NCBI GenBank assembly: GCA_005240095.1
Contig: SBAX01000058.1
Span: 1-63,979, forward strand
Direction of reading: 5' to 3'
Length of the DNA stretch: 63,979 bases
Source: Phycisphaera mikurensis
GTDB lineage: Bacteria; Planctomycetota; Phycisphaerae; UBA1845
The translations under genes and the position numbers were made by a program. Below, in pieces: positions 3,198-53,491 of the stretch. Under the pieces are notes generated by a model. That model worked only from the letters and a program-made list of their open reading frames with translations, was not told where the DNA came from and did no database searches. Within the stretch, counting starts at the first letter, position 1. Every line of letters begins with the position of its first letter.

Positions 3198-4028
3198 TCA
3201 GCCGGGCCAGTCGCCCTCGAAAACCTCGACGGCAGGCCCGGTCATGTAGACGTGGTCGTTGGCCCCCCATTCAACATCCAGTTCGCCGCCGGGTAATGAG
3301 GCTGTAATGCGGCGTTCCGTGCGCCCGGTGAGCGCTCCCGCGACGCAGACGGCGCAGGCTCCGGAGCCGCAGGCCCGCGTAGCGCCGCTCCCGCGCTCCC
3401 AGTGCCGGACCGTCACATGCGCGCGGTCATCGACACGGACGAAATGGGCGTTGATCCTTCGAGGGAAGAACGTGGAATGTTCGAACCTCGGCCCCAAGTC
3501 TACAAGGTCGACTTTGTGCAGGTCGCGGGTGAAGACGACGGCGTGGGGATTGCCCATGGATACGCAGGTAACCTGATACTCGGTACCGCCCAGGGTAATC
3601 GGATAATCGATCACGCGCTCGACGACGATCGTCGTGGGAATCGATGAGGCATCGAGGACCGGCTTCCCCATGTCCACACGCACGGATTGCACGACACCGT
3701 TCTTGATCATGCAGTCGAGAGTTTTCACGCCCGCGTCCGTCTCGATCCGAAGGTGCGGACCGGCGGCCAGCCCGTGCTCGACGACGTACTTCGCGACACA
3801 GCGAATGCCGTTTCCGCACATTTCCCCGCGGGAGCCTTCTGCGTTGTACATCTCCATTCGGGCGTCCGCGACCTTCGAGGGACAGATAAGAATCAACCCG
3901 TCGCTGCCGATCCCGGTATGGCGGTCGGAAACCAGCTTGGCAAGTCGCTCCGGCTCGGCTATGCGTTCCGTAAAGGCATTGACGTAGACGTAATCGTTGC
4001 CGAGCCCGTGCATCTTTGTGAATCGCAT
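3198..4028 (-). CDS. dapF: Diaminopimelate epimerase
   Basis: 276 aa. It carries MRFTKMHGLGNDYVYV, the two catalytic Cys contexts (GEMCGNGIRC and ACGSGACA), and has typical length. Confidence 0.9.
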   Translation of the reverse strand: MRFTKMHGLGNDYVYVNAFTERIAEPERLAKLVSDRHTGIGSDGLILICPSKVADARMEMYNAEGSRGEMCGNGIRCVAKYVVEHGLAAGPHLRIETDAGVKTLDCMIKNGVVQSVRVDMGKPVLDASSIPTTIVVERVIDYPITLGGTEYQVTCVSMGNPHAVVFTRDLHKVDLVDLGPRFEHSTFFPRRINAHFVRVDDRAHVTVRHWERGSGATRACGSGACAVCVAGALTGRTERRITASLPGGELDVEWGANDHVYMTGPAVEVFEGDWPG

Positions 4029-6370: not shown

Positions 6371-9300
6371 ATGGCTGCCAAACAATTGAACAAGCGACTC
6401 GTTGTGGGATTGGGGCTCTTCGGCTTCGCCTGCATGATCCTGCTGTCCGTGCTCATGCTTCGACAGCTCCAGCGCCGGGACCCGAAGTACTTCGTGCAGT
6501 TGGCCGAAACGGCGGCGGCCCAGGAGCAATGGCAGCAGGCCGCCCTCTTCTATAACGAAGCCTGGGAACGAAGCGGCGAGGCACGGTTCCTGGTTGATGC
6601 CGGCGAGATGCTCCTCCGCGAGGGCGACCCCGGCAGCGCCGTTCGTGCCTGGAAGCAAGCCTTGGTTCACCAACCCGACCTCCTCCGGGCCCATGAGCGA
6701 CAGGTGGCCCTGCTGGTGCAAACTGCCCAGTTGTACGCCACTCCGCAGCGCTGGCAGCAGGTCAGCGATGCCGCCGAGGCCCTTCTGGCGGCGGCACCAA
6801 GCGACGCCCTGGAGCAGCGAGCATTAGCTCAGCACGCTCGTGGATTGGCGCTTCTCAATCTTGAAAGCCAGGATGCCGGGAACGCTGAGCGGGGCATCGC
6901 CGCCATTACCGAAGCGACCAGACTCGCCCCGGGCAACGTCGAGTACGCCATCGATCTGGCACGCGAGTTGATTCGCCAGGAGCGCGTCGACCAGGGGCAG
7001 CAAGTCTATCTTGCCCTGATCCAGCAACACACCGCACCTGGCGGTGACGCTTCCAGGGCACGCCTGGCGTATGCGCAGCACTTGGCCGAAAAGCAGCGCC
7101 TGGATGAAGCGGAGACGTTCTTTCACCAAAGCATGGATTCAGCGGGAGGCGATCCGAGCGCCTTGCGCGAGGCCAAGATCGGTTACGCCCGGTTCATTTC
7201 CTATCGGTGGGTTGCGGCCGTCCGCGAAGGGACGTCCAAACAAGCCGCGGATGACCTTTTCGCTCAGGCGGAGAAGATCCTCCGCGAGTGTATTGAGGCA
7301 GAACCGGACGAGTTCGAGCCTTATCTGCAGACCGCCTTCCTCTACAAAGCAGCCCAGCGTCACGCGGACGTGGTTGATATCTGCGAAGCGCGAATTCGTC
7401 GCGGACTCTCGCGAAAGGGTGTCGAGGCTACACAAAACAGGGTCAGGATGTTCACCTTGATGATCAACGCTTCGGAGGCGTGTGTGGCGCTGGGCGTGAA
7501 GGCGGACGATGTAGCCGAACGGGAGAAATGGCTCGCCAAGGCCGAGCAGTACGTAGCTGACGCCAAGGGAGAGTCGGCCAGTCATCCGCGTGTGCTCAGT
7601 CAAGCAGGTCGCGTGAAGCTCGCCCGCGGGCAAGACCGTGAAGCCCTCAAAGAGCTTCGTGCGGCGGATGAGGCTTACGGCACCTATGATGCCGTGAACT
7701 GGGAAAACAAGATCATTCTCGCTCAGGTCCACATGCGCCTAAGCGAGGCAGGCGCCGCCAGAGACGTGCTGGAGAGCGTCCTGGACAAGGCCATGCGCTA
7801 CCGTTCGCGCGATCCCATCTTCTGGAATCTCTATGCCCAGGTACTCCTCGCGAACAACGACCTCGACCGGGCCCTGGCGATCTGCGACCGAGTGCTGCTT
7901 CTCGATTCCAGCAACACCGATGCGCGGCAGTTGAAAGCGGCCATCCATGAGCGCCAGGGCAAACTCGAAGTCGCGGGGATGGAACACGAGAAGGCCACGG
8001 GCTCTCCGACGATCCGGGCGATGCTGCAGGCCCGGGCGTTGGGCCTCGGCGGTGAACAGGAAGCGGCAGTCCAGGTACTTCTATCGGCGCTGGAACACGA
8101 TCCCGCCGATAGCCGTCTCGTGGCCGCTACGATCAACGAACTCATCAACCTGAACCGCCATGACGACGCGCAGAGCGTCGCCGCCCGGGCCCTCGCGGTC
8201 AAGCCGGATGATCTCCGCCTGCAGCAGCTCTCGCTTCTCGCACGACGCGACCTGACGCCTCAGCAGCGCGACGAGGCCACCTTGCAACTCCTTATGGCGG
8301 AGGAGGACGATCTACAGCGCGATCTCGACCTGGCGATGTTCTACGCCCGCAAGGAGAAGCTTGCCGAAGCGGTGCAGGCTCTCGACAGCGCCGAACGGCA
8401 CATTCTCGCGAAGGATACCCCCCTCGGGCGCTCGGCGACGGCGACGCAGCACGCGGCCGTTCTCAAGGCCAAGATCCGGGCAGCGGCGCAGATGGAGGAC
8501 ATCGCGGCCATGGGGGCCGCTCGCGACTCCGCGGCGCGCCACAACGTGGACGGTGCGGGTGGGAAGTCCCTGCTCGGTTGGTACCACCTGCAACGGCAAG
8601 AATACGAGCTCGCGGTCAATGCCTATCGTGACGCCATTGCCGCTCAGCCCACCGATGCCACCTCGCTGGCTCATCTCGCCCAGTGCCTGCAGGTGCTTGG
8701 ACGCCTCGATGAAGCCAAGGCCGCCTACGAACAAGCTGTGGAGATCAATCCCAATGAGGGCATTGCCCACCAGGGCCTGGCCATGATCGCCCAGGCCCGC
8801 GGCGACACGGAGGGTTTCGCCAGGGAGCTGGCCATCTGTGAGCGGCTCCTGCCCAACGAACCGTGGGTACGCGAACAGGTGACCATCCGAACGGAAGAGG
8901 GCGATCCCGCCGGTGCGATTTCCCGCCGCGAGGCTCGCCTCGCCGAATCCCCCGACGACGCGTGGAATCTTCAGCGACTCGCAATCCTCTATGAGAACGC
9001 TGGTGATTACGTGAACGCCGAGCAGGCCCATGCCCGGCTGCGGGAGCTACGTCCCAGCGATGAAAGAGTCGTCATGGCATCTGCGGCTTTCTACCGCCGA
9101 ACCGATCGTGAGGAGGAAGGCCTGGCCCTCGTCAGACAGTTCGCCGAATCGCGTACAGACCCCAAGCAACGGGCGGTCGCCGCGCTGATTCTGGCCAACG
9201 AGCAAATCCAGCTGCGCAGGCTTGAGGATGCCGAAAAGACGCTCCTCACCGCCCATGAAACGTCGCCCTCGTTGGATGTCGCCCGGGGCATCGCGGAGTT

Positions 9301-10921
9301 CTATGTACGGGCCGCGAACCAACCTGCAAAGGCCGCCGCCTGGTATCAGCGAGCCGTAGATCTCGCGCGCCGCGAGAAGCCGGCCGTGGTTGCCGAGCTG
9401 CTGGACGCGAAGATCGCTTCTCTGCTCAACCGTTCCGTGAACGATCTGGAACAGGCCCGGCGAGACACCGAGGAGCTTCGCAACCAGCATCCTGACTTTG
9501 CCCGAGGCTTTCTATGGGAGAGCGAAATTGCTGCCCGCAACGGCGACATCGATCGTGCGATAAGCAAACTGGGAGACTATCTCAATGCCAGGCCAAACGA
9601 GGCCTACGCGCTGTATCAGCGGGCGCGACATCTGGTCTCTCGCGGGAAGATTGTGGCCGCCATGGCCGACCTCGAGGCAATCAAGAGGGCCTCGCCTCTT
9701 GCGTTGGAGCTCCAGCCGCGGCTCCTGCTCGCACGCCTCCATCTGCGTGCCGGCCAGCGTGATCTGTGGATTGCAGAGTTGGAATCTCTGGTCAAGGACG
9801 CCGAACAGCGCCGGGAGTCCGCAGTGGCGGTGGAAGCGTTGGCGAACGCATACATCTCGGAGAAGCGCCTTGCCGACGCGGAGCGGTTGGTCACCGCCCA
9901 GATCAACCGCACGGCGGAGTCGCCCCAATGGTACTTCCTTCGAGGCCGGATTTCCCTGGCGCTGGGCGACTCGGAAAGAGCACTGGGCGACTTCCGTCGT
10001 GGCGCGGAAATCAGCAAGTTCAGCGCCGAGAGCGTTCTTCAGGTCCTCACGGCATACTTCCAGACTGGTAGGTTTGCCGCCGGCGTGGAGTACTACGACC
10101 GTCTGCCCCCTCAGGAGCGGCCGTCGGCGGGCATGCTCTCGCGTTACGCCCAGCTGTTGGCGCGTTACGGCGCGAAGGCGAAGGCCGTTGAGCAGTTCCG
10201 GCTGGCCATGGCCCGCGCTCTTGGCGAAGAAGCGGATTCCCCTCAGCAGGTCGGCAACGACGTCTTCGCGGTTTTCACGCCGCAGGAGGCCGTGACGGCC
10301 TTTGAAGGCGCCCCGCCGGATCCGGCCCTCGCCCGGGCCAACGACCGCATCCTGGCCCGCGCGGTCGGCCTCGTCGGGCAAGTGGACGATGCCGCAGACC
10401 GCTACGACGCCCTCCTGGCCGCCGCCAATGATCACGAGCGTGCCACGCTGCTCCATGAGCGCGGCGACCTCTACCAGACCGCCGGCCGGACCGACAGCGC
10501 CGTCGAGAGTTACAAGGAAGCACTCAAATACGACCCAACCAACTGGGTGACCTTGAACAACATTGCCTACCTGCTCTCGGATGCCGGTGGCGCGAACGAG
10601 GAGGCGCTTCCCTATGCACAAAAGGCTGTGGCCCTAGCCGACAATGCCTACACCCTGGACACTCTGGGTTGGATCTACGTGGGGCTCTCTCGTTACCCGC
10701 TGGCGATTGCGGAGCTCAGCCGCGCCATCCGCGTGAATCCGGAATACGCCCTGCCCTATTATCATCTTGGAGAGGCCTATCGCCGCAGCTCGCAGTTTGT
10801 CGAAGCCGCCGACGTACTTCGTGACGGTGCGAATGTCGCGAAGGCTGCCAAAGATGAGGCCCTCATGAAGCAGATCGAATCTGCCATCGACAGGTCCGCC
10901 CAGCGCGACGCAACCCCATGA
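6371..10921 (+). CDS. Giant membrane-anchored TPR-repeat protein (PrsT-like?)
   Basis: 1516 aa. It has an N-terminal TM (LVVGLGLFGFACMILLSVLML) and then dozens of A/L/R-rich 34-residue-type repeats (..A...Y..AL...P....A...LA..). It lies 30 nt downstream of the EpsI-like gene. Confidence 0.85.
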   Translation: MAAKQLNKRLVVGLGLFGFACMILLSVLMLRQLQRRDPKYFVQLAETAAAQEQWQQAALFYNEAWERSGEARFLVDAGEMLLREGDPGSAVRAWKQALVHQPDLLRAHERQVALLVQTAQLYATPQRWQQVSDAAEALLAAAPSDALEQRALAQHARGLALLNLESQDAGNAERGIAAITEATRLAPGNVEYAIDLARELIRQERVDQGQQVYLALIQQHTAPGGDASRARLAYAQHLAEKQRLDEAETFFHQSMDSAGGDPSALREAKIGYARFISYRWVAAVREGTSKQAADDLFAQAEKILRECIEAEPDEFEPYLQTAFLYKAAQRHADVVDICEARIRRGLSRKGVEATQNRVRMFTLMINASEACVALGVKADDVAEREKWLAKAEQYVADAKGESASHPRVLSQAGRVKLARGQDREALKELRAADEAYGTYDAVNWENKIILAQVHMRLSEAGAARDVLESVLDKAMRYRSRDPIFWNLYAQVLLANNDLDRALAICDRVLLLDSSNTDARQLKAAIHERQGKLEVAGMEHEKATGSPTIRAMLQARALGLGGEQEAAVQVLLSALEHDPADSRLVAATINELINLNRHDDAQSVAARALAVKPDDLRLQQLSLLARRDLTPQQRDEATLQLLMAEEDDLQRDLDLAMFYARKEKLAEAVQALDSAERHILAKDTPLGRSATATQHAAVLKAKIRAAAQMEDIAAMGAARDSAARHNVDGAGGKSLLGWYHLQRQEYELAVNAYRDAIAAQPTDATSLAHLAQCLQVLGRLDEAKAAYEQAVEINPNEGIAHQGLAMIAQARGDTEGFARELAICERLLPNEPWVREQVTIRTEEGDPAGAISRREARLAESPDDAWNLQRLAILYENAGDYVNAEQAHARLRELRPSDERVVMASAAFYRRTDREEEGLALVRQFAESRTDPKQRAVAALILANEQIQLRRLEDAEKTLLTAHETSPSLDVARGIAEFYVRAANQPAKAAAWYQRAVDLARREKPAVVAELLDAKIASLLNRSVNDLEQARRDTEELRNQHPDFARGFLWESEIAARNGDIDRAISKLGDYLNARPNEAYALYQRARHLVSRGKIVAAMADLEAIKRASPLALELQPRLLLARLHLRAGQRDLWIAELESLVKDAEQRRESAVAVEALANAYISEKRLADAERLVTAQINRTAESPQWYFLRGRISLALGDSERALGDFRRGAEISKFSAESVLQVLTAYFQTGRFAAGVEYYDRLPPQERPSAGMLSRYAQLLARYGAKAKAVEQFRLAMARALGEEADSPQQVGNDVFAVFTPQEAVTAFEGAPPDPALARANDRILARAVGLVGQVDDAADRYDALLAAANDHERATLLHERGDLYQTAGRTDSAVESYKEALKYDPTNWVTLNNIAYLLSDAGGANEEALPYAQKAVALADNAYTLDTLGWIYVGLSRYPLAIAELSRAIRVNPEYALPYYHLGEAYRRSSQFVEAADVLRDGANVAKAAKDEALMKQIESAIDRSAQRDATP

Positions 10922-46083: not shown

Positions 46084-49000
46084 GTGATAAACCGCACGGT
46101 CTTCCGGTTGTCGTTTCCCATGGTCATGGCAGGTCTGCTCGTCGTTGGTGGGCGGGCCCATGGAGAGTTTGAGACCCCTATCGCGCTGACCGGTGTCAAG
46201 ATCGTGACCGAGGCCGGCACGACGATCGAATCTGGGACCATCGTCATGGCCGATGGCCGGATCGTGGCTGTCGGGTCAGACGTGACCATCCCGGCCCATG
46301 CCGAGCGCGTGGACGGGACCGGGCTGATCGCCTACCCGGGATTCATCGATGGGCAGTGCCACCTGGGCATCGCGGAGAAGGAGCGCACCAAGGAAGAGCG
46401 GGAGCGGACCGAGGATGTAAGTCCCGATCCACGCGAAGGGCCGCTGGTAGCGACGCGCTTCGCGGAGCGGAAGGGAGTCCGTCCCCAGACGCGGGCCATC
46501 GACCTGTTCACGCCCGACGACAAGCAGCGGGAAGCCCACCGGGCATCAGGGTTCACCGCAGCGTTGATCGCCCCGCGGGATGCGCTTTTCGCAGGGACCA
46601 GCGATCTGGTGAGCCTGGCGGATGCCCCGATCCGGCGGAGCGTGCTCAGCTCTGATGTCGCCCATCACGGCTCTTTCACCATCGGCGAGCAAGGAGAGTA
46701 CCCCCGGACGATCCTGGGGATCTTCGCCCAGTTCCGGCAGGTGTTCCTGGATGCAGTCTGGAACGCCAAGATGCAGAAGTACGCCGAGCGGCACCCCACG
46801 AGTACGGAGCGCGTCCCCACGGACGCGGCACTGGATTCGCTGCAACCGCTGCTGGGGGGGTCGAAACGGATCTTCTTTGAGGCCAACACGGACAACGAGA
46901 TTCGGCGGGCGCTGGACCTGGCCGGGGAATTCAAGCTCAAAGTCGTGATCACCGGCGGCAAGGAGGCGTGGAAGGTGGCGGATCGGCTCAAGGCCGAGCG
47001 TGTGCCGGTGATTCTGAGCTTGAAGTTCGATGAGGAGCCGGAATACGGCAAGAAGAAGAAATCCAAAGGCGAAGGCAAGAAGTCGGAGGATAAGTCGGAG
47101 GTGGCCGCCGAGGAGTCCGGTGACAAGCCGGAAGCCGAATCCAAGGAAGGCGAGAAGAAAAAGGAAGAAAGAATCTACGAGCCGCTGAGGCTGCGCAAGG
47201 AGCGCCGTCGTCTGTGGGAAGAGCAAGTGACCAACGCGGTTCGCCTGCACGAGGCCGGCGTGCCCTTCGCCTTCTCCACACGGAAGTTCAAGTCGCCATC
47301 CGAGTTCATGGAGAGCCTCCGGCTGGTGATCGAGAAGGGGCTTCCTGAGGATGTCGCCGTCCGAGCCCTGACCGACAGCGCCGCGGAGATTCTGCAGGCC
47401 AAGGATCAGATCGGACGGGTCGCGCCGGGCTACCTGGCGGATGTCACGGTGATGACCAAGCCGCTCTCCGACAAGAGCGCTAAGGTCAAATTCGTATTCA
47501 TCGACGGGAAAAAGATCGACATCGAGGCAGAGGACGAGAAGGAAGGCGATAAAGGCGGCAAGGAGGCCAAAGCCGGCGACAAGGACGAGGAGAAGACGGA
47601 AACTGCCGAAGGCGACAAGCCCGCTGACAGCGGCGCGCCCGCGGAGGAAGCCGACAAAGGGCCGGCCTGGGACGTGGAACTGCTGGCCGATCGAATGCCG
47701 AAGACAAAGACGGGCGGCAGCGCCCTGATTCGCAACGCGACGATCATTCCCGTTGTGGGGCAGACAATTCCCAAGGGGTCCATCCTCGTCCGCAACGGCA
47801 AGATCGCCGCCGTCGGGGCAGACCTGACCGCGCCTCCGGACGTAACCGTCATTGATGCGGCCGGCCGATACGTCATGCCGGGCATTGTCGACCCGCATTC
47901 GCATCTGGGAATCGATGGCGTCAACGAATCGCCTCTGGCCATCAGCGCTGAGGTTCGCATCGCCGATACCATCGATCCGCACGACGTGGCCATCTATCGA
48001 GCCGTCGCCGGGGGCGCAACGACGCATCACGCCATGCACGGCTCCGCCAACCCCATCGGCGGGCAGAACGTGATCTTCAAGCTCAAGTACGAGCGGCCGG
48101 TGTCGGAGATGGTCATCGCCGACGCTCCGCGGACGATCAAGTTTGCTTTAGGAGAGAACGTCACCCAGGCGAACTTCTTCGAGAACTTCGGCAAGCGCTA
48201 CCCCAACACACGCATGGGCGTGGAAGCGGTGATCCGCGCCGCGTTTGAGGCCGCCAAGGCGTATCAGGCCGAGTGGGACGAGTGCAACCGGCTGTCGCAG
48301 TCGGGTCAGGATGTTCCGCCACCGCGCCGCGACCTGCGCCTGGAAGCCCTGGCCGATGTCCTCGCCGGCCGAATGACGATCCACAGCCACTGCTACCGGT
48401 CGGAAGAGATCCTGCGTCTGCTGGCCACGTGCGAGGAATATGGCGTGCGCGTCGGCCTGCTGCATCACGTTCTGGAAGGCTATCGCATTTCACCGGAGAT
48501 CGTCCGCCATGGCTGCGGGGCGTCCACGTTCGCCAACGATTGGGCATACAAGGTCGAGGCGTTCCAGGCCATTCCCCACAACGCGGCGCTCATGACCCAG
48601 AACGGCGTCAATGCCTCGCTCAATTCCGATTCGCAGAACACAATTCGCTACCTGGGTCAGGAAGCCGCCAAGACCATCAAATGGGGCGGCTTGGACGAGA
48701 ATCAGGCCTTGCGGCTCGTGACGCTCAATCCCGCGATGCAACTGCAGATCGACGATCGCGTCGGCAGCATCGAAGTCGGCAAAGACGCGGACTTGGCCAT
48801 CTTCAATGGGCATCCCCTCAACACCTTCTCTAAATGCGTGATGACGCTTATTGACGGAGAGGTTTACTTCGAGAACGCCCGCCCGGAGCCTACCGAGCCG
48901 AGTTTCGTGTGGGGTGCGGGTCCATCACAACTGGATCGCACCATCCCGCAGACGCCCCACCGCGCTTATGCCATTGTCGATGCGACGATTCACCCCATCA

Positions 49001-50292
49001 GCGGCCCGGTGATCGACAAGGGGACGGTGGTCATCGTCGAGGACAAGATTCTGGCCGTAGGAGTGAGCGTGGACGTACCGCCCGGCGCGGGCGTGATTCA
49101 AGGGACGGGACTGCACGTGTACCCCGGGCTGATGGATGCCGGCAGCGTGCTGGGCATGACGGAGATAGACTCTCTGCGCACGACGCGGGATTTCAGCGAA
49201 ATCGGCACGTTCAACCCGCACCTCAAGACGGCCAGCGCCGTGCATCCCCACAGCGAGCATATTGCCATCGCCCGGGCGGCAGGAATCACCACGACACTGG
49301 TGAAGCCTTCGGGCAGCCGCATTCAGGGACAAAGCTCGATCGTTCATCTCGACGGCTGGACGGCACCGGAGATGATCCTAGTTGACTCTTTCGGTCTGCA
49401 CATGAGCGTGCCGAGCCTGCCCGTCCGCCTGCCTGAAGACAAGGAAGCGAAGAAGAAGCAGCAGGATGAGCACAAGAAGGCGCTCAAGCATCTGGAAGAG
49501 TACATCGCCAAGGCCAAGCACTACGCAGAGGTCAAGCAACTGGCCAGTGCCGACCCGAAGCTGCGCTTCGATGTGGACCTGACGCTGGAGGCGATGGTCC
49601 CCTATGTGCGCGGCGAAAAGCCGGTGATCTTCGAGGCCGCGACCTACAAGACCATCCTCGACACGCTGGAGTTCGCCGAGAAGCACAAGCTCAAGGCCAT
49701 CCTGAGCGGCGGGCAGGAGGCCTGGAAGGTCGCGGCGCAGCTTAAGGAAAAGGACATTCCCGTCATTCTGAGCACGGTGCTGAGCTATCCGCGCGGGGAG
49801 TATGAGACCTGGGAGTCGGTCTATCGCTGCGCGGCGGAACTCGACCGCGCCGGAGTCCGTTTCTGCTTTGCCTCCGACAGCGCTTCCAGCGCGTATGACC
49901 TGGGGACGATCGCGGGCATGGCCGTCGCCCACGGTTTACCGCGGGAGCGGGCAGAGTATGCTCTGACCCTCGGCGCTGCCCAGATTCTGGGTCTTGCCGA
50001 CCGCATCGGCTCCATCGAGCCAGGCAAGTACGCCGACTTGATCGTGACCACGGATACACCGCTACAGACCGTCGCCCAGGTTACTCACGTGTTCATTGAC
50101 GGACTGCCTCGCGACTTGTCGAACCTGCACACGGAGAACTACCGCAAGTTCAAGAACCGCCCGGCGCCCAACCTCGGTCCTCTGGCCGAGCTTCGCGGGC
50201 CCAAGAGCCTCAGCACCGCAAAGGTGGATGTTGCCCGAGGCGGCTCCGGAGGCGCCGGGTCGCAGTCTAGCGCGTCCGGTCGGGCGCCCTAG
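46084..50292 (+). CDS. Secreted triple amidohydrolase-fold fusion protein (1402 aa)
   Basis: GTG start with a signal-like N-terminus. Three modules each begin with a composite beta-sandwich motif: YPGFIDGQCHLGI, MPGIVDPHSHLGI and YPGLMDAGSVLGM. K/E-rich linkers lie at about aa 320-370 and 475-520. Confidence 0.8.
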   Translation: MINRTVFRLSFPMVMAGLLVVGGRAHGEFETPIALTGVKIVTEAGTTIESGTIVMADGRIVAVGSDVTIPAHAERVDGTGLIAYPGFIDGQCHLGIAEKERTKEERERTEDVSPDPREGPLVATRFAERKGVRPQTRAIDLFTPDDKQREAHRASGFTAALIAPRDALFAGTSDLVSLADAPIRRSVLSSDVAHHGSFTIGEQGEYPRTILGIFAQFRQVFLDAVWNAKMQKYAERHPTSTERVPTDAALDSLQPLLGGSKRIFFEANTDNEIRRALDLAGEFKLKVVITGGKEAWKVADRLKAERVPVILSLKFDEEPEYGKKKKSKGEGKKSEDKSEVAAEESGDKPEAESKEGEKKKEERIYEPLRLRKERRRLWEEQVTNAVRLHEAGVPFAFSTRKFKSPSEFMESLRLVIEKGLPEDVAVRALTDSAAEILQAKDQIGRVAPGYLADVTVMTKPLSDKSAKVKFVFIDGKKIDIEAEDEKEGDKGGKEAKAGDKDEEKTETAEGDKPADSGAPAEEADKGPAWDVELLADRMPKTKTGGSALIRNATIIPVVGQTIPKGSILVRNGKIAAVGADLTAPPDVTVIDAAGRYVMPGIVDPHSHLGIDGVNESPLAISAEVRIADTIDPHDVAIYRAVAGGATTHHAMHGSANPIGGQNVIFKLKYERPVSEMVIADAPRTIKFALGENVTQANFFENFGKRYPNTRMGVEAVIRAAFEAAKAYQAEWDECNRLSQSGQDVPPPRRDLRLEALADVLAGRMTIHSHCYRSEEILRLLATCEEYGVRVGLLHHVLEGYRISPEIVRHGCGASTFANDWAYKVEAFQAIPHNAALMTQNGVNASLNSDSQNTIRYLGQEAAKTIKWGGLDENQALRLVTLNPAMQLQIDDRVGSIEVGKDADLAIFNGHPLNTFSKCVMTLIDGEVYFENARPEPTEPSFVWGAGPSQLDRTIPQTPHRAYAIVDATIHPISGPVIDKGTVVIVEDKILAVGVSVDVPPGAGVIQGTGLHVYPGLMDAGSVLGMTEIDSLRTTRDFSEIGTFNPHLKTASAVHPHSEHIAIARAAGITTTLVKPSGSRIQGQSSIVHLDGWTAPEMILVDSFGLHMSVPSLPVRLPEDKEAKKKQQDEHKKALKHLEEYIAKAKHYAEVKQLASADPKLRFDVDLTLEAMVPYVRGEKPVIFEAATYKTILDTLEFAEKHKLKAILSGGQEAWKVAAQLKEKDIPVILSTVLSYPRGEYETWESVYRCAAELDRAGVRFCFASDSASSAYDLGTIAGMAVAHGLPRERAEYALTLGAAQILGLADRIGSIEPGKYADLIVTTDTPLQTVAQVTHVFIDGLPRDLSNLHTENYRKFKNRPAPNLGPLAELRGPKSLSTAKVDVARGGSGGAGSQSSASGRAP

Positions 50293-50438
50293 CAGGCGCG
50301 AACAGTCGAGAACGGAAGTTCGCGAAGTATTCCATGTGGCCCAAGGATGGCTTAAGGGTAGTTCCCTAATCCAATGTCAATGCAAACTCGCGCGTCGATG
50401 CGTGTCCGTCGGCCAAAAACATTTCCTCAAAATAGGAC

Positions 50439-50467
50439 TTGACAGACGTAAGGGGGGGGCGCATATT
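50439..50467 (+). promoter_or_regulatory. Candidate sigma-70 promoter TTGACA-17-CATATT with a G8 tract in the spacer
   Basis: TTGACA is at 50439-50444, G8 at 50452-50459 and CATATT at 50462-50467. It lies in a locally AT-richer 300-nt intergenic region, about 125 nt upstream of the ATG at 50595 (GGAGG RBS at 50583-87). Confidence 0.45.
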
Positions 50468-50594
50468 GTATCTTGAACTCTTATTTCCGCCGTCGGTGAT
50501 GAGAGAACTCGGATGTTCATAGTTGGTGCAACGGCTTTGCTGCCGCGAGATGCGCGCGGCCTCACACGACCAATAGAAAAGCTGGAGGTTCAAG

Positions 50595-51041
50595 ATGAGA
50601 AAGATCGCCCTTGTCGTCGTGCTCGGAGTCGCTCTGATCGCTGTCGCTGAGAGCGCGGTACGCTGGGTCGGCGTGGAGCCTGCGCCAGCTGTGGTAAACG
50701 CACAGCCTCTCCCACCGCCCCCGGGCGAATGCACTGGGGGAGCTGGTTGCAAGAAACTGGGAGCTGCCCCGCCTGGATGCAGTTACACGCCCTGTTGCGC
50801 TCCGAATCAGCAAACATGTAACGCCATCTCGACGAGCGGCTTTCCTAACCAACATATGGTCGACGCTACATGGCAGGAAGGCAAGTGCCGCAAGCAAGAT
50901 GGAGAACCCGTTGTCATCTGCCAGATTTGGGAGTGCGCTGGAACTACCTGCCCGAACTGCTGGCTCGACGAAACGACGCTGGAAGAGAAAACGAGGGCCA
51001 AGTGGAAGGAATACGGCCCGTGCGCAGCTGCCACAGAATGA
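50595..51041 (+). CDS. Secreted 12-cysteine mini-protein, unknown family
   Basis: 148 aa. It has the signal peptide MRKIALVVVLGVALIAVAES, a Pro-rich stretch AQPLPPPPG, and then 12 Cys. A strong RBS precedes it, and its stop overlaps the next start. Confidence 0.55.
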   Translation: MRKIALVVVLGVALIAVAESAVRWVGVEPAPAVVNAQPLPPPPGECTGGAGCKKLGAAPPGCSYTPCCAPNQQTCNAISTSGFPNQHMVDATWQEGKCRKQDGEPVVICQIWECAGTTCPNCWLDETTLEEKTRAKWKEYGPCAAATE

Positions 51042-52447
51042 AGTGCTTATTCTCGATTCTCGTATTCCTACTTGCGGCAGGCGCCGGTGCGGAGCCGCAG
51101 CGCGCCGACCTACCGCAGCGACTGCGCGGACTTTTGGAAGCGCCCCGCATCGGGACATCCCAGATCGAATGGACGATTTCATGGGCGGAGAGCTGCAATG
51201 CAGGGCTGCGGGAGCGCTTTGTGACACGCTCCTCCGATGAAACGCTCTGGGAGAGCAACCTCGGTGATCAGAACGGAACGCACGCCGCGAGGTGCGTGCG
51301 CCCTGACCCGCAAGATCCCGACGCACTTCCGCAAGCAGTCCCACCGGGTAAGTACGACGTCGGCACTCGATCGCGCATGATCTACGAAGGCGCCGTTTGG
51401 GACCTCCCGTGCGCCGAAAGACCGGATTCCGGTTCCGTCACGCCACGGGAGGCTGCTCGCGTGCGGCTTCCCGTCGATATCCTGACCATTGGTCTGGCGC
51501 CCTGCAAGATCACGGATGAAACAGACGCCAACCCGTTCCGCTTGGAGAACCGCGTATATGAGGAGTTGGCGTCCGGCAAGTTCACCGAAGGATATCAGAA
51601 TGGTTTGCCAACCGTGGCGACGGAATCTCAGGACGGGCACTACCGATTGAAGTGGACATTCGACGATCGCCTTGGTGGGCAACCGGTGAGCGCGGCGCTC
51701 TACGTTGCCGGCGAATTGGTCTTCTCGTCTGAAACGGCGTACCAGGACGCTGATGGTCGTTGGGTACCGAAGTCAACGCGTTTCTATCAACGTGACTCCA
51801 CAGAGCCGTATAAGACGATCGATGTCGAGCGGGCCTCCTTCAACGAGCCCTGGCACGCAAAGGAGATCAACCCAGCCGACATGGGTGCGCTGAACGGCAC
51901 TCAGTTTTCCACGCCCGATGGCACTCAGTTTTGGACTGGTAGCGAGCTGGTTTCGAGTGACGAATTCTGGGAGCTGGTGTGCGTGCACGATGTCATGCCG
52001 GACCCGAAGATCCTAGAACTTCTGTCCAGTGATCTTGGACAGACTGTGGACCAGTATCTGACATATCTCAGCCGTGCAGGCGAACATCTCCGCGAGCAGT
52101 ACCGGCGCAAGCACGATAGCGAGCCGTGGCTCATCAAGTCGACACCAGCCAAACAACAGGACGAGTGGGACACCTATGTCGAGAAGTTCCTGGCCGAGCA
52201 CAAGTTGCCGGAGGCGGGCGTGAAGAGAGCACATGAAATCCTAAAGCAGGCCAAGGCCTTACGCGATGCTCGACGAAGGCAGAACGCTATAGACATTCGG
52301 CAAGCTGAGAAGGAAAACGACCGCCGCAGACTAGATCATTTCGCGGATTTGGAGAAGATGATCTTCGACCGCGTGCTGGTGCGCTCTCTCAAGAAGCTGA
52401 TTCCCTCCCAACAGGGTTCCACACCAGTTCCCGGTGGCAACGATTAG
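51038..52447 (+). CDS. Secreted 469-aa protein, unknown family (beta-rich N-terminal part, charged helical C-terminal part)
   Basis: The ATG at 51038 lies in an ATGA overlap with the upstream stop. The signal peptide is MKCLFSILVFLLAAGAGA. The track ORF upstream of 51038 overlaps the Cys-rich gene out of frame. Confidence 0.55.
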   Translation: MKCLFSILVFLLAAGAGAEPQRADLPQRLRGLLEAPRIGTSQIEWTISWAESCNAGLRERFVTRSSDETLWESNLGDQNGTHAARCVRPDPQDPDALPQAVPPGKYDVGTRSRMIYEGAVWDLPCAERPDSGSVTPREAARVRLPVDILTIGLAPCKITDETDANPFRLENRVYEELASGKFTEGYQNGLPTVATESQDGHYRLKWTFDDRLGGQPVSAALYVAGELVFSSETAYQDADGRWVPKSTRFYQRDSTEPYKTIDVERASFNEPWHAKEINPADMGALNGTQFSTPDGTQFWTGSELVSSDEFWELVCVHDVMPDPKILELLSSDLGQTVDQYLTYLSRAGEHLREQYRRKHDSEPWLIKSTPAKQQDEWDTYVEKFLAEHKLPEAGVKRAHEILKQAKALRDARRRQNAIDIRQAEKENDRRRLDHFADLEKMIFDRVLVRSLKKLIPSQQGSTPVPGGND

Positions 52448-52456
52448 CAACGAAGG

Positions 52457-53491
52457 TCAGCCGCCGTGGCGGGCTTCCAGGTTGAGAGCCAGACTGCGTT
52501 CATTGCGGAGCAGGCCCAAGGCCATGCGTGCACTGGGCTCGATGCGGGTCAGCAGGCGGTGCAGGTCGTCGACTGACGAAACGAGACGCCCGTCCAGCGA
52601 AACGATGACGTCGTCGGGCTGCAGGCCACCCAGCGCCGCGGAACTGCCCGGCTCGACGGACTCGACGCGCACGCCGGACTCGTTGAGCAGGTCCAGCTCT
52701 CGCGCGAGGCGGCAGGGAACTTGCACGGTCGCCGCGGCGATGCCCAGCACGGCGCGGCGCACGCGGCCGTGGGAAATCAGTTCCGTGGTGACCCAGCGGG
52801 CGGTGTTGGAGGGGATGGCGAAGCCGACGCCCTGGGCAAAGGCGATCATGGCCGTGTTCAGTCCGACGATCTGACAGCGGCTGTCGACCAGCGGACCGCC
52901 GGAATTGCCGGGATTGATCGGAGCGGTGTGCTGGATGACGCCGTCGATCAGCCTGCCGCCGATCCCGCGCATGCTCCGCCCCATGGCACTGACGATGCCG
53001 CTGGAAACCGTGGCTTGCAGGCCAAAGGGGCTGCCCATCGCCACGACAAGCTGCCCGACGCGCAGGGCATCGCTGTCGCCCAGCTGCGCCGTGGGCAAGT
53101 CGCGGGCGGAAAGCCGAACTAAGGCCAGGTCAGTCGCCGGGTCGTCGCCGATGAGGCTCGCATCGAGCGTATCGCCTTCGTGGGTCGTCGCGGTGAGCCG
53201 CTCGCGCCCGGACACGACGTGGCTGTTGGTCAGGGCGAATCCATCGGGCGTCAGCAGGACTCCTGAGCCGGAGCCACCGCGCCGCTGCACCCCGCGCGGA
53301 CTCTGGATCGCAATGACGGCGGAGCCAGCCTGCTCGACGACACGAACGACCGTCTTCGAGTACGCGTCAAGAAGATCTTCCGTCGGCGAAGCGGACGGCG
53401 ATGCGGAACACGACGGGGAAACATCGCCGTTCGCAGAAGAATCGTTCAGTGCGCTGATCAGGGCGTCGTATTGCTGTTGTGATGCACGCAT
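52457..53491 (-). CDS. HtrA/DegP-like trypsin-fold serine protease with one PDZ domain (no obvious signal peptide)
   Basis: The catalytic triad contexts are TNSHVV, D..LALVRL and NPGNSGGPLVD. The C-terminal PDZ is (VESVEPGSSAALGGLQPDDVIVSLDG). The N-terminus MRASQQQYDALISALND is not hydrophobic. Confidence 0.85.
   Translation of the reverse strand: MRASQQQYDALISALNDSSANGDVSPSCSASPSASPTEDLLDAYSKTVVRVVEQAGSAVIAIQSPRGVQRRGGSGSGVLLTPDGFALTNSHVVSGRERLTATTHEGDTLDASLIGDDPATDLALVRLSARDLPTAQLGDSDALRVGQLVVAMGSPFGLQATVSSGIVSAMGRSMRGIGGRLIDGVIQHTAPINPGNSGGPLVDSRCQIVGLNTAMIAFAQGVGFAIPSNTARWVTTELISHGRVRRAVLGIAAATVQVPCRLARELDLLNESGVRVESVEPGSSAALGGLQPDDVIVSLDGRLVSSVDDLHRLLTRIEPSARMALGLLRNERSLALNLEARHGG

Follow-up and report, generated by a model that had tools for sequence, protein, structure and literature searches.

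A conserved two-gene envelope cassette of uncultured Planctomycetota, predicted to pair a LolA/RseB-fold protein with a hypervariable 12-cysteine protein

In the conotoxin-like families and in families of small secreted cysteine-rich effectors, a conserved leader precedes a mature domain that is hypervariable on a fixed Cys framework. In contingency promoters, a homopolymeric tract lies in the spacer between the -35 and -10 elements, as in those of Neisseria porA and opc and Bordetella fim. Proteins with the LolA-superfamily fold bind hydrophobic ligands or partner proteins, and LolA-fold carriers take hydrophobic cargo across the periplasm; the P. gingivalis protein LolA3 is a paralogue of unknown role that lacks the Arg hallmark of LolA and the Leu hallmark of LolB (PMC13103446). 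Here we describe a cassette of two open reading frames (ORFs), ORF1 and ORF2, on contig SBAX01000058.1 of Phycisphaera mikurensis (assembly GCA_005240095.1). Positions 1–63,979 of the contig were analysed and are called the window below. The cassette is a conserved two-gene envelope module of uncultured Planctomycetota, mostly Phycisphaerae.

The organization of the cassette is as follows, with structural assignments taken from AlphaFold2 (AF2) models, their per-residue confidence (pLDDT, predicted local distance difference test) and Foldseek searches.

50293–50594, + strand: intergenic leader region of 302 nt and 52.3% GC, with the promoter and a 5′ untranslated region (5′ UTR) of ~120 nt
50439–50467, + strand: sigma-70-like promoter with 10/12 matches, TTGACA (50439–50444), a 17-nt spacer and CATATT (50462–50467)
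50452–50459, + strand: run of eight G residues (G8) within the promoter spacer, from a homopolymer scan of the window
50584–50588, + strand: GGAGG ribosome-binding site, 6 nt ahead of the ORF1 ATG (50595)
50595–51041, + strand: ORF1, 148 aa with 12 Cys, a predicted exported or membrane-tethered protein
50595–50729, + strand: ORF1 residues 1–45, a basic N-terminus, a hydrophobic helix (signal peptide or signal anchor; AF2 helix at residues 7–19) and a Pro-rich linker
50730–51038, + strand: ORF1 residues 46–148, a hypervariable ectodomain, predicted to be β-rich, on an invariant 12-Cys scaffold (homologue alignment, AF2)
51038–52447, + strand: ORF2, 469 aa, predicted to be exported, with full-length homologues; an ATGA at 51038–51041 joins the ORF1 stop to the ORF2 start
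51113–51955, + strand: ORF2 residues ~26–306, a predicted LolA/LolB/RseB-fold β domain (AF2, Foldseek)
51266–51367, + strand: ORF2 residues ~77–110, a variable, indel-rich loop of lower confidence in the β domain (ORF2 homologue alignment columns 101–143; block-mean pLDDT 70–77)
51956–52393, + strand: ORF2 residues 307–452, a charged helical C-terminal domain (AF2)

A first-pass annotation, made from the sequence alone, had listed the spacer, the sigma-70-like promoter, the GGAGG site, the 148-aa/12-Cys and 469-aa ORFs and their ATGA overlap, and every one of these structural statements was confirmed. The export signals that it gave to both proteins are also present, each with a basic n-region and an apolar run of 15–16 residues: ORF1 begins with MRK and 15 apolar residues, and ORF2 with MK, 16 apolar residues and AGA/E. 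The database gene call places the ORF2 start at an alternative in-frame GTG at 51020, which has an AGGA 9 nt upstream and yields a protein of 475 aa.

The pairing of the two genes is conserved, in agreement with the tight coupling that the overlap had suggested. An ORF1 homologue lies directly upstream, on the same strand, in 15/16 close ORF2 copies, at distances mostly between -4 and +18 nt (43 nt in locus L016 and 199 nt in L010). The upstream proteins, of 145–168 aa, have a hydrophobic helix at the N-terminus, followed by a Pro/Gly linker, and their 12 Cys align. For the distant ORF2 relatives, 50 metagenomic loci were surveyed; about 14 of the 20 evaluable genes are preceded by a protein of 127–165 aa with an N-terminal helix and 12–17 Cys. 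ORF1 and these distant Cys proteins have a common layout, namely, an N-terminal helix, six Cys, a gap of ~22 residues, five Cys, a gap of ~20 residues and a final Cys, and the distant proteins likewise combine a conserved leader with a variable Cys domain.

Some of the distant operons (L019:1292-4437, L049:1703-4506 and L066:571-2130) are headed by a gene for a membrane-anchored DUF1573 protein with a CxC motif (CAC or CGC). For the DUF1573 family, selenocysteine (UGC) forms have been reported (PMC9312934, PMC13188914) and suggest a redox-active site; the protein may assist the oxidative folding of the Cys-rich protein. The window locus has no DUF1573 gene. Directly downstream of one cassette, a gene (L008:6619-7074) codes for 151 aa, and its product carries an IPTL-CTERM sorting motif.

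The AF2 model of ORF2 (pLDDT 85.5; predicted template modelling score, pTM, 0.80) has β strands across residues 40–306 and helices across residues 307–452, and 57 of the 163 residues of the C-terminal stretch are charged. It thus bears out the β-rich N-terminal and very charged helical C-terminal parts of the first-pass annotation. In Foldseek searches against the PDB, the best match was to LolA3 of P. gingivalis (9tp6; E 1.3e-8, template modelling (TM) score 0.57, probability 1.0), followed by NE2245 (3buu; E 1.9e-7), RseB (E 7e-5) and MucB (E 9e-4), the RseB/MucB entries being 2p4b, 2v42 and 6jau. Among the 17 hits at E <= 1e-3, 15 are LolA, LolA3, NE2245, RseB or MucB, and the rest are a GtfA chain and a marginal further LolA entry. 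LolB and LprG matched just above this cut-off. The β domain is therefore assigned, on its predicted fold, to the LolA/LolB/RseB structural superfamily, in which an unclosed antiparallel sheet of 11–13 strands is wrapped around internal helices.

Sequence searches were blind to this relationship. Neither ORF2, nor its 24 homologues, nor 68 distant relatives match Pfam LolA, LolB, LolA_like, MucB_RseB or LppX_LprAFG or a corresponding NCBIfam model; Pfam searches with 25 close and 68 distant ORF2 relatives revealed no consistent domain; NCBIfam, PADLOC and PHROGs searches with ORF2 gave nothing meaningful; and PDB sequence-profile searches with ORF2, its distant relatives or the helical domain alone returned chance-level matches only. 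The statement that neither protein belongs to a recognizable family, therefore, holds for sequence, where searches with both came back empty, but not for the predicted fold of ORF2. Of the roles proposed earlier for the pair, an effector with a partner or carrier, this fold favours a binder or carrier over an effector, since the LolA/LolB/RseB superfamily is where the β domain is placed.

The close homologues of ORF2, 24 full-length proteins at 41–53% identity, come from metagenome bins of Phycisphaerae or Planctomycetota, and all named ones are “hypothetical”. An exhaustive profile search widened the superfamily to 617 clusters at 50% identity (354 at E <= 1e-10), mostly of 440–500 aa, and again all named members among the checked clusters are “hypothetical”. 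A profile built from the 68 distant members alone matches the window ORF2 at E 2.5e-60. By its predicted fold, we regard ORF2 as a new family in the LolA/RseB superfamily, with a new domain combination and outside the curated families.

The helical domain, for which no Pfam or PDB relative was found, has relatives that also occur alone or in other secreted proteins, at times twice. Loci L039-L065 (e.g., L042:1990-3402 and L046:2182-3534) encode secreted proteins of ~400 aa in which a long Pro-rich linker connects two helical modules. The C-terminal one is a homologue of the ORF2 helical domain, and the N-terminal one gives a sub-threshold LTXXQ signal. L-x-x-x-Q and TRAQ motifs had prompted the idea that the helical domain is of the Spy/CpxP kind. 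This idea is unsupported: PDB profile searches returned no Spy, CpxP or ZraP chain, and the sole LTXXQ signal (E 0.17) is in a different module of an ORF2-related protein.

In ORF1, the 12 Cys are at positions 46, 52, 62, 67, 68, 75, 98, 109, 114, 119, 122 and 143, which gives the scaffold C-x5-C-x9-C-x4-CC-x6-C-x22-C-x10-C-x4-C-x4-C-x2-C-x20-C. Cys counts in the family are mostly even once N-terminal Cys are discounted. Disulfides explain the CC doublet and the variable C-x(2-4)-C spacing better than a metal site would, so the ectodomain is presumably disulfide-bonded. Most homologues have 3–5 residues ahead of a 22-residue hydrophobic helix that lacks a good signal-peptidase site, and they are, for this reason, probably signal-anchored (type II) membrane proteins; there is no lipobox in ORF1, which is thus not a lipoprotein. 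The earlier description of both proteins as secreted stands insofar as both look exported, whereas ORF1 in most homologues would be anchored rather than freely released.

ORF1, used alone as the query, retrieved no protein other than itself. With a family profile, 27 proteins were recovered at E <= 0.001 (the window ORF1 and 26 homologues), all of 146–171 aa and none with a Pfam domain. ORF1 searches of Pfam, NCBIfam, PADLOC, PHROGs and PDB sequence profiles gave no meaningful match. The ectodomain is modelled as β-rich, with block-mean pLDDT of 72–94, and a fold search against the PDB and BFVD gave no match; the best hit, an RNase A-like fold (E 0.7, TM score 0.2), was dismissed as noise. ORF1 thus appears, in its sequence and in its model, to be without recognizable relatives in any known family.

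The two proteins differ greatly in how fast they vary. Among close homologues, identity is 20–50% in the ORF1 ectodomain, 46–79% in ORF2 and 63–86% in the ORF1 leader. The nonsynonymous rate, dN, is 0.47–0.63 for the ectodomain versus 0.13–0.20 for ORF2, and the synonymous rate, dS, of the ectodomain is also higher in 3/4 pairs. The ratio omega (dN/dS) is 0.5–0.6 for the ectodomain and 0.2–0.36 for ORF2. Because dS is saturated or itself raised, dN/dS is uninformative as a test of positive selection, and recombination is indicated instead.

The L008/L009 pair comes from one metagenome-assembled genome (MAG). Here, dN and dS are 0.63 and 1.10 for the ectodomain and 0.13 and 0.37 for ORF2. Nucleotide identity is 84–94% over the 5′ UTR and ORF1 leader, 43–54% over the ectodomain, 62–88% over ORF2 residues 1–240, with a dip to 47% at the indel-rich loop (residues ~79–106), and 90–100% over residues 240–430. 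This arrangement is a recombination mosaic, in which a variable block, the ectodomain together with the neighbouring half of the β domain, is set between homogenized flanks. The co-divergence of the N-terminal half of ORF2 with ORF1 is the sole hint, and a faint one, as to the surfaces at which the two proteins might meet.

More than one cassette per genome occurs in several cases, with three in one MAG and two in another. At L001:3301-5190, a degenerate tandem cassette lies upstream of an intact one. Its ORF1 has a frameshift exactly at a C8 run (3424) that codes for the Pro-rich linker, and an in-frame stop at 3943 interrupts its ORF2; this would represent either pseudogenization or the “off” state of coding-region slippage. 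In locus L004, a first ORF2 is followed by TTGACA-N6-G12-ATAATA (7648-7677), an ORF1 homologue (7736-8179) that the public gene call overlooked and a second ORF2 (8190-9602).

The promoter is the sole sigma-70-like site within 50200–52700, where 0.5 such sites are expected from shuffled sequence. The G8 in its spacer is the single G or C run of at least 8 in the 64-kb window, where 8.8 would be expected by shuffling. The genome strongly avoids long G/C homopolymers, and this makes the promoter G8 conspicuous. In 431 kb, comprising the window and the non-redundant loci, the pattern TTGACA-N(0-14)-G(>=6) occurs nine times versus 0.9 expected. All 9/9 sites are on the cassette strand, immediately 5′ of the first gene of a cassette, and 3/9 belong to the distant family. 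The G-runs of these nine cassettes measure 6, 7, 7, 8, 8, 8, 8, 10 and 12 nt, with implied -35/-10 spacings of 13–19 nt. Within the close subgroup, to which 5′ UTR conservation is limited, the orthologous promoter position holds G7, G8, A8 or no run, and the downstream 5′ UTR is kept. The motif is not universal, since part of the cassettes lack a TTGACA/G-run promoter. Such cassettes in L071-L082 have in common a GC-rich palindromic element followed by A8 (or A6), ~225 to 160 nt 5′ of the ORF1 homologues, and the A8 run of this type was unchanged over five P0041 samples.

The G-run layout has the anatomy of a contingency promoter. Between independent assemblies of the same strain, no difference in tract length was seen (window versus L017 and L018, G8; L004 versus L069, G12; L011 versus L070, G10) in a comparison of consensus sequences only, in which minority lengths could go unseen. 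The G12 tract of L004 and L069 has the same length despite 8 SNPs (single-nucleotide polymorphisms) nearby, and the A8 and G5 tracts showed no length variation across 5–6 samples. Given these identical tracts in independent assemblies, phase-variable switching through the G-tract is a hypothesis that we consider possible but doubtful; alternatively, the G-run could be a regulator site or an element that sets promoter strength. A regulatory RNA in the leader was rejected, as an Rfam search of the region gave zero matches and the folding energy of the 5′ UTR was at the level of shuffles (z = 0.05, no excess). Terminator prediction found no intrinsic terminator at the cassette.

The base composition of the cassette is modestly but genuinely distinct. 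Its GC is 58.2% (ORF1 60.0%, ORF2 58.8%), and the window-wide value is 63.2% versus the 52.3% of the spacer. GC at third codon positions (GC3) is 0.62 in ORF1 and 0.68 in ORF2 versus 0.72–0.83 in ten Pfam-verified neighbouring genes, so both are under all ten. The odd composition reported in the first-pass annotation was therefore upheld in GC and GC3 and in an enrichment of the codons TTA (4x), CTA (5x) and GTA (1.6x), but ATT, also named there as a rare codon, is unenriched. Hits of both proteins to characterized, unrelated families, a lack of conserved adjacency and GC3 within the normal range had been named as grounds for giving up the proposal; all three were checked, and none was found.

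Whether the cassette was acquired is a related matter. Flanking genes vary from locus to locus, and the cassette stands in unrelated neighbourhoods in different genomes. The most divergent cassette (L016:5439-7182; 29% ORF2 identity) has a GC3 of 0.46–0.48 versus ~0.79 in its flanks and gives the clearest indication that the two genes are transferred horizontally together. From these differing neighbourhoods and the low GC3 of L016, we conclude that the cassette moves as a unit. The case is weaker for the window copy. Its GC3 drop is moderate; no meaningful flanking repeats surround it; its neighbours are housekeeping genes, with no integrase or transposase among them; and no cassette relatives were found on viral contigs or in phage or plasmid records. 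The family is lineage-restricted. Acquisition of the window cassette, which had been proposed earlier, is thus plausible, with modest support at this locus.

The immediate neighbours of the window cassette are the following.

46084–50292, + strand: amidohydrolase ORF, 1402 aa (Pfam Amidohydro_1/3)
52457–53491, - strand: HtrA-like protease, Trypsin_2 and one PDZ domain, 344 aa (Pfam), convergent on the cassette

The upstream protein has amidohydrolase matches in three stretches, long Lys/Glu-rich linkers and an N-terminal signal-like segment, and it looks like an internally duplicated amidohydrolase. Two Logan contigs from separate runs (SRR6943130 and SRR6261452) match the window exactly, and both start at 49674 within this gene, which suggests a branch point of the assembly graph there, due to a strain variant or a repeat. 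The HtrA-like gene, whose convergence on the cassette had been noted earlier, leaves 9 nt between its stop and that of ORF2; its longest ORF has no N-terminal hydrophobic segment.

We propose that the cassette joins a constant periplasmic LolA-fold binder, ORF2, to a variable, disulfide-rich ectodomain, ORF1, which is tethered to the inner membrane or exported. This is our leading proposal, held tentatively and at somewhat less than an even chance. The cassette would be one operon encoding an extracytoplasmic two-protein module, transcribed from the sigma-70-like promoter, whose spacer G-run may tune expression or toggle it on and off. ORF1 would be inserted in, or exported across, the inner membrane through its N-terminal hydrophobic segment, and the Pro/Gly linker would present the ~100-residue disulfide-knotted, β-rich ectodomain in the periplasm. 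ORF2, with its translation coupled to that of ORF1 and with a Sec signal for export, would be the constant partner, and its half-barrel and helical tail would bind ORF1 and thereby chaperone, carry or cap it. Paralogous cassettes would recombine and swap the variable block, that is, the ectodomain and the N-terminal half of the ORF2 β domain, while the promoter, 5′ UTR, leader and C-terminal half of ORF2 stay similar. Since the block itself is variable, its variable face most likely recognizes a varying target, such as an external ligand, an enzyme or a parasite. What the analysis itself shows is the layout of the genes, their conserved pairing, the modelled fold of ORF2, the Cys scaffold, the hypervariable and mosaic pattern and the promoter motif; the topology, the disulfide bonds, the physical binding of ORF1 to ORF2 and the biological role are all matters that we infer.

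Several observations weigh against this proposal. One ORF2 copy (L004, 6001-7446) has no ORF1; this orphan directly precedes a complete cassette. A Cys-rich partner is absent at six of the distant loci. An hhalign comparison of the ORF1 family with the distant small Cys proteins was not significant, and cross-HMM (hidden Markov model) searches were negative; because profile comparison fails to link the two small-protein families, the wide conservation of the pair rests on an analogy of layout. The h-region of the window ORF1 is shorter, at 15 residues, than the helix of most homologues, and a possible AVA/E cleavage site is present. The AF2 model of ORF1 is moderate overall (pLDDT 75, pTM 0.47), with pLDDT ranging from 56 to 75 over the five models. 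Finally, the higher divergence of the N-terminal half of ORF2 could mark the end of a gene-conversion tract.

It is tempting to go further and to see in the cassette a widespread but undescribed, phase- and sequence-variable recognition or defence system of the envelope of free-living environmental Planctomycetota, with a tethered knotted ectodomain that is diversified between conserved flanks, a LolA-fold holder, a G-tract switch and a new small fold. This fuller version is rather unlikely.

Other explanations have been weighed against a LolA-fold binder with a tethered variable partner. The one that survives best makes ORF1 a secreted Cys-rich toxin, bacteriocin or signal, with the leader as its export signal and ORF2 as a dedicated carrier or protector. 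It would account for the conservation of the leader, for the hypervariability of the mature domain within an unchanging Cys framework and for the multiple, tandem and degenerate copies that are typical of arms-race families; LolA-fold proteins do carry hydrophobic cargo across the periplasm (PMC13103446), and the short h-region of the window ORF1 is compatible with a signal peptide that is cleaved. We nevertheless think it unlikely, as no toxin, bacteriocin or defence family was matched in Pfam, NCBIfam, PADLOC or PHROGs, ORF1 has no structural match in the PDB or BFVD, and the pair lacks a conserved neighbouring gene for a dedicated exporter or outer-membrane component. Moreover, most homologues have no plausible signal-peptidase site near their long hydrophobic helix, and ORF2 does not co-vary over its whole length as an immunity protein would. 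A polymorphic toxin–immunity pair was rejected, for no toxin or immunity family was matched and ORF2 is large, predicted to be exported and far more conserved than ORF1, with co-divergence only in its N-terminal half.

The matches of ORF2 to RseB and MucB raise the question of a stress sensor like RseA/RseB (or MucA/MucB). In such a sensor, ORF2 would cap ORF1 and shield it from an HtrA/DegS-like protease until a lipid or misfolded-protein signal freed ORF2, with proteolysis of ORF1 and signalling to follow. The outer side of ORF1 is RseA-like, with one transmembrane helix and a periplasmic domain, and a one-PDZ HtrA-type protease gene does converge on the cassette in the window. Yet, three of the four defining features fail. 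ORF1 and its homologues have only 3–5 cytoplasmic residues and no RseA or anti-sigma Pfam match, so there would be neither an anti-sigma domain nor an output; no gene of the sigma-70 family or of an extracytoplasmic function (ECF) sigma factor is next to the cassette, either in the window or at other loci, L001-L005 among them; and the C-terminal domain of ORF2 (307–452) is modelled as all-helical and is not the small β domain with which RseB binds RseA. In addition, the HtrA neighbour is not kept at other loci, and hypervariability would be unexpected in a regulated domain. We judge the sensor to be distinctly unlikely.

Quite improbable, in our view, is a periplasmic protective inhibitor, in which the tethered ectodomain, much like orphan immunity proteins or membrane-bound inhibitors of lysozyme or proteases, would block incoming hydrolases or toxins on an ORF2 scaffold and its variability would track the attackers. 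The membrane tether and short linker, the small disulfide-stabilized domain, the hypervariability and the gene arrays all suit this role, but nothing resembling Ivy, MliC/PliC, ecotin or a known family of immunity proteins came up in Pfam and PDB searches, and the obligatory, conserved 470-aa partner is left unexplained.

A redox or metal module would make the 12 Cys a metal site or thiol buffer and ORF2 a fusion of a LolA-like domain with a periplasmic chaperone such as Spy, CpxP or ZraP. It draws on the distant operons that start with a DUF1573 CxC gene, from a family with selenocysteine forms (PMC9312934, PMC13188914), on the L-x-x-x-Q and TRAQ motifs in the helical domain of distant relatives and on the weak LTXXQ match in a related protein. 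That match is far below threshold and in a different module, the helical-domain profile matches no PDB chain of Spy, CpxP or ZraP, and the window locus has no DUF1573 gene. The Cys spacing is variable (C-x2-4-C) with no His or Met partners, hypervariability is atypical of metal sites, and we consider such a module very improbable. That the ORFs are unrelated or spurious and are neighbours only by chance in a stretch of low GC can be dismissed: neither is in an annotated family and the single-sequence search with ORF1 gave only itself, but both belong to conserved families with invariant residues, their adjacency and order are kept across deep divergence, and ORF2 folds confidently.

In the searched literature, neither the pair as a system, nor the hypervariability of ORF1, nor the G-tract promoter was found. 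ORF2 defines a large unnamed superfamily (at least 617 clusters at 50% identity), which would extend the LolA/RseB fold to a new architecture and partnership, and ORF1 adds a bacterial small-protein family with a conserved 12-Cys scaffold, whose sequence turns over very fast and for which no structural relative was detected. Hypervariable families behind homopolymer-containing promoters are well known in host-associated pathogens; to our knowledge, they are hardly known in free-living Planctomycetota. Should both the G-tract and the variability have a function, the cassette would offer an accessible model of envelope-level arms races in environmental bacteria, for instance against phages, predators or the enzymes of competitors. 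Even the conservative reading yields a testable annotation, a periplasmic binder and a tethered disulfide-rich ligand, for hundreds of hypothetical gene pairs.

How does the cassette compare with the known systems? In the manner of conotoxin-like families, ORF1 has a conserved N-terminal leader and a fixed Cys scaffold on which nearly everything else varies. Unlike them, it is bacterial and probably membrane-tethered, its domain has ~100 residues, it has an obligatory partner predicted to be of LolA fold, and structural similarity was not detected. With the contingency promoters, the cassette has in common a G-run of 6–12 nt between TTGACA and a -10-like hexamer, of differing length and spacing in nine cassettes, ahead of genes for a variable exported protein family in several copies. 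The hosts of the cassette, in contrast, are free-living environmental bacteria, and its tracts are without length polymorphism among independent same-strain assemblies, as seen in consensus sequences.

The RseA–RseB and MucA–MucB systems resemble the cassette in that the gene of a LolA-fold periplasmic protein adjoins that of a single-pass inner-membrane protein whose periplasmic domain is a possible target; in the window, moreover, the adjacent gene codes for a DegS-like protease with one PDZ domain. They differ from it in several respects: the gene order is functionally reversed, ORF1 has no cytoplasmic anti-sigma domain, a sigma-E gene is absent, ORF2 lacks the small C-terminal β domain of RseB, and the partner is hypervariable and disulfide-rich. 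The LolA/LolB carriers and their paralogues (LolA3, 9tp6; N. europaea NE2245, 3buu) differ from ORF2 in that it has no sequence-profile match to the LolA, LolB or LolA_like Pfam families, carries an extra helical domain of 145 residues and has a Cys-rich non-lipoprotein as its partner instead of LolCDE or LolB. Nevertheless, these proteins are the ones that ORF2 most resembles by its model. It has the same unclosed antiparallel β-sheet with internal helices (E 1.3e-8 to 3.7e-7; probability 1.0; target-normalized TM score 0.53–0.57), it is also predicted to be a soluble, Sec-exported periplasmic protein and, like LolA3, it does without the Arg of LolA and the Leu of LolB.

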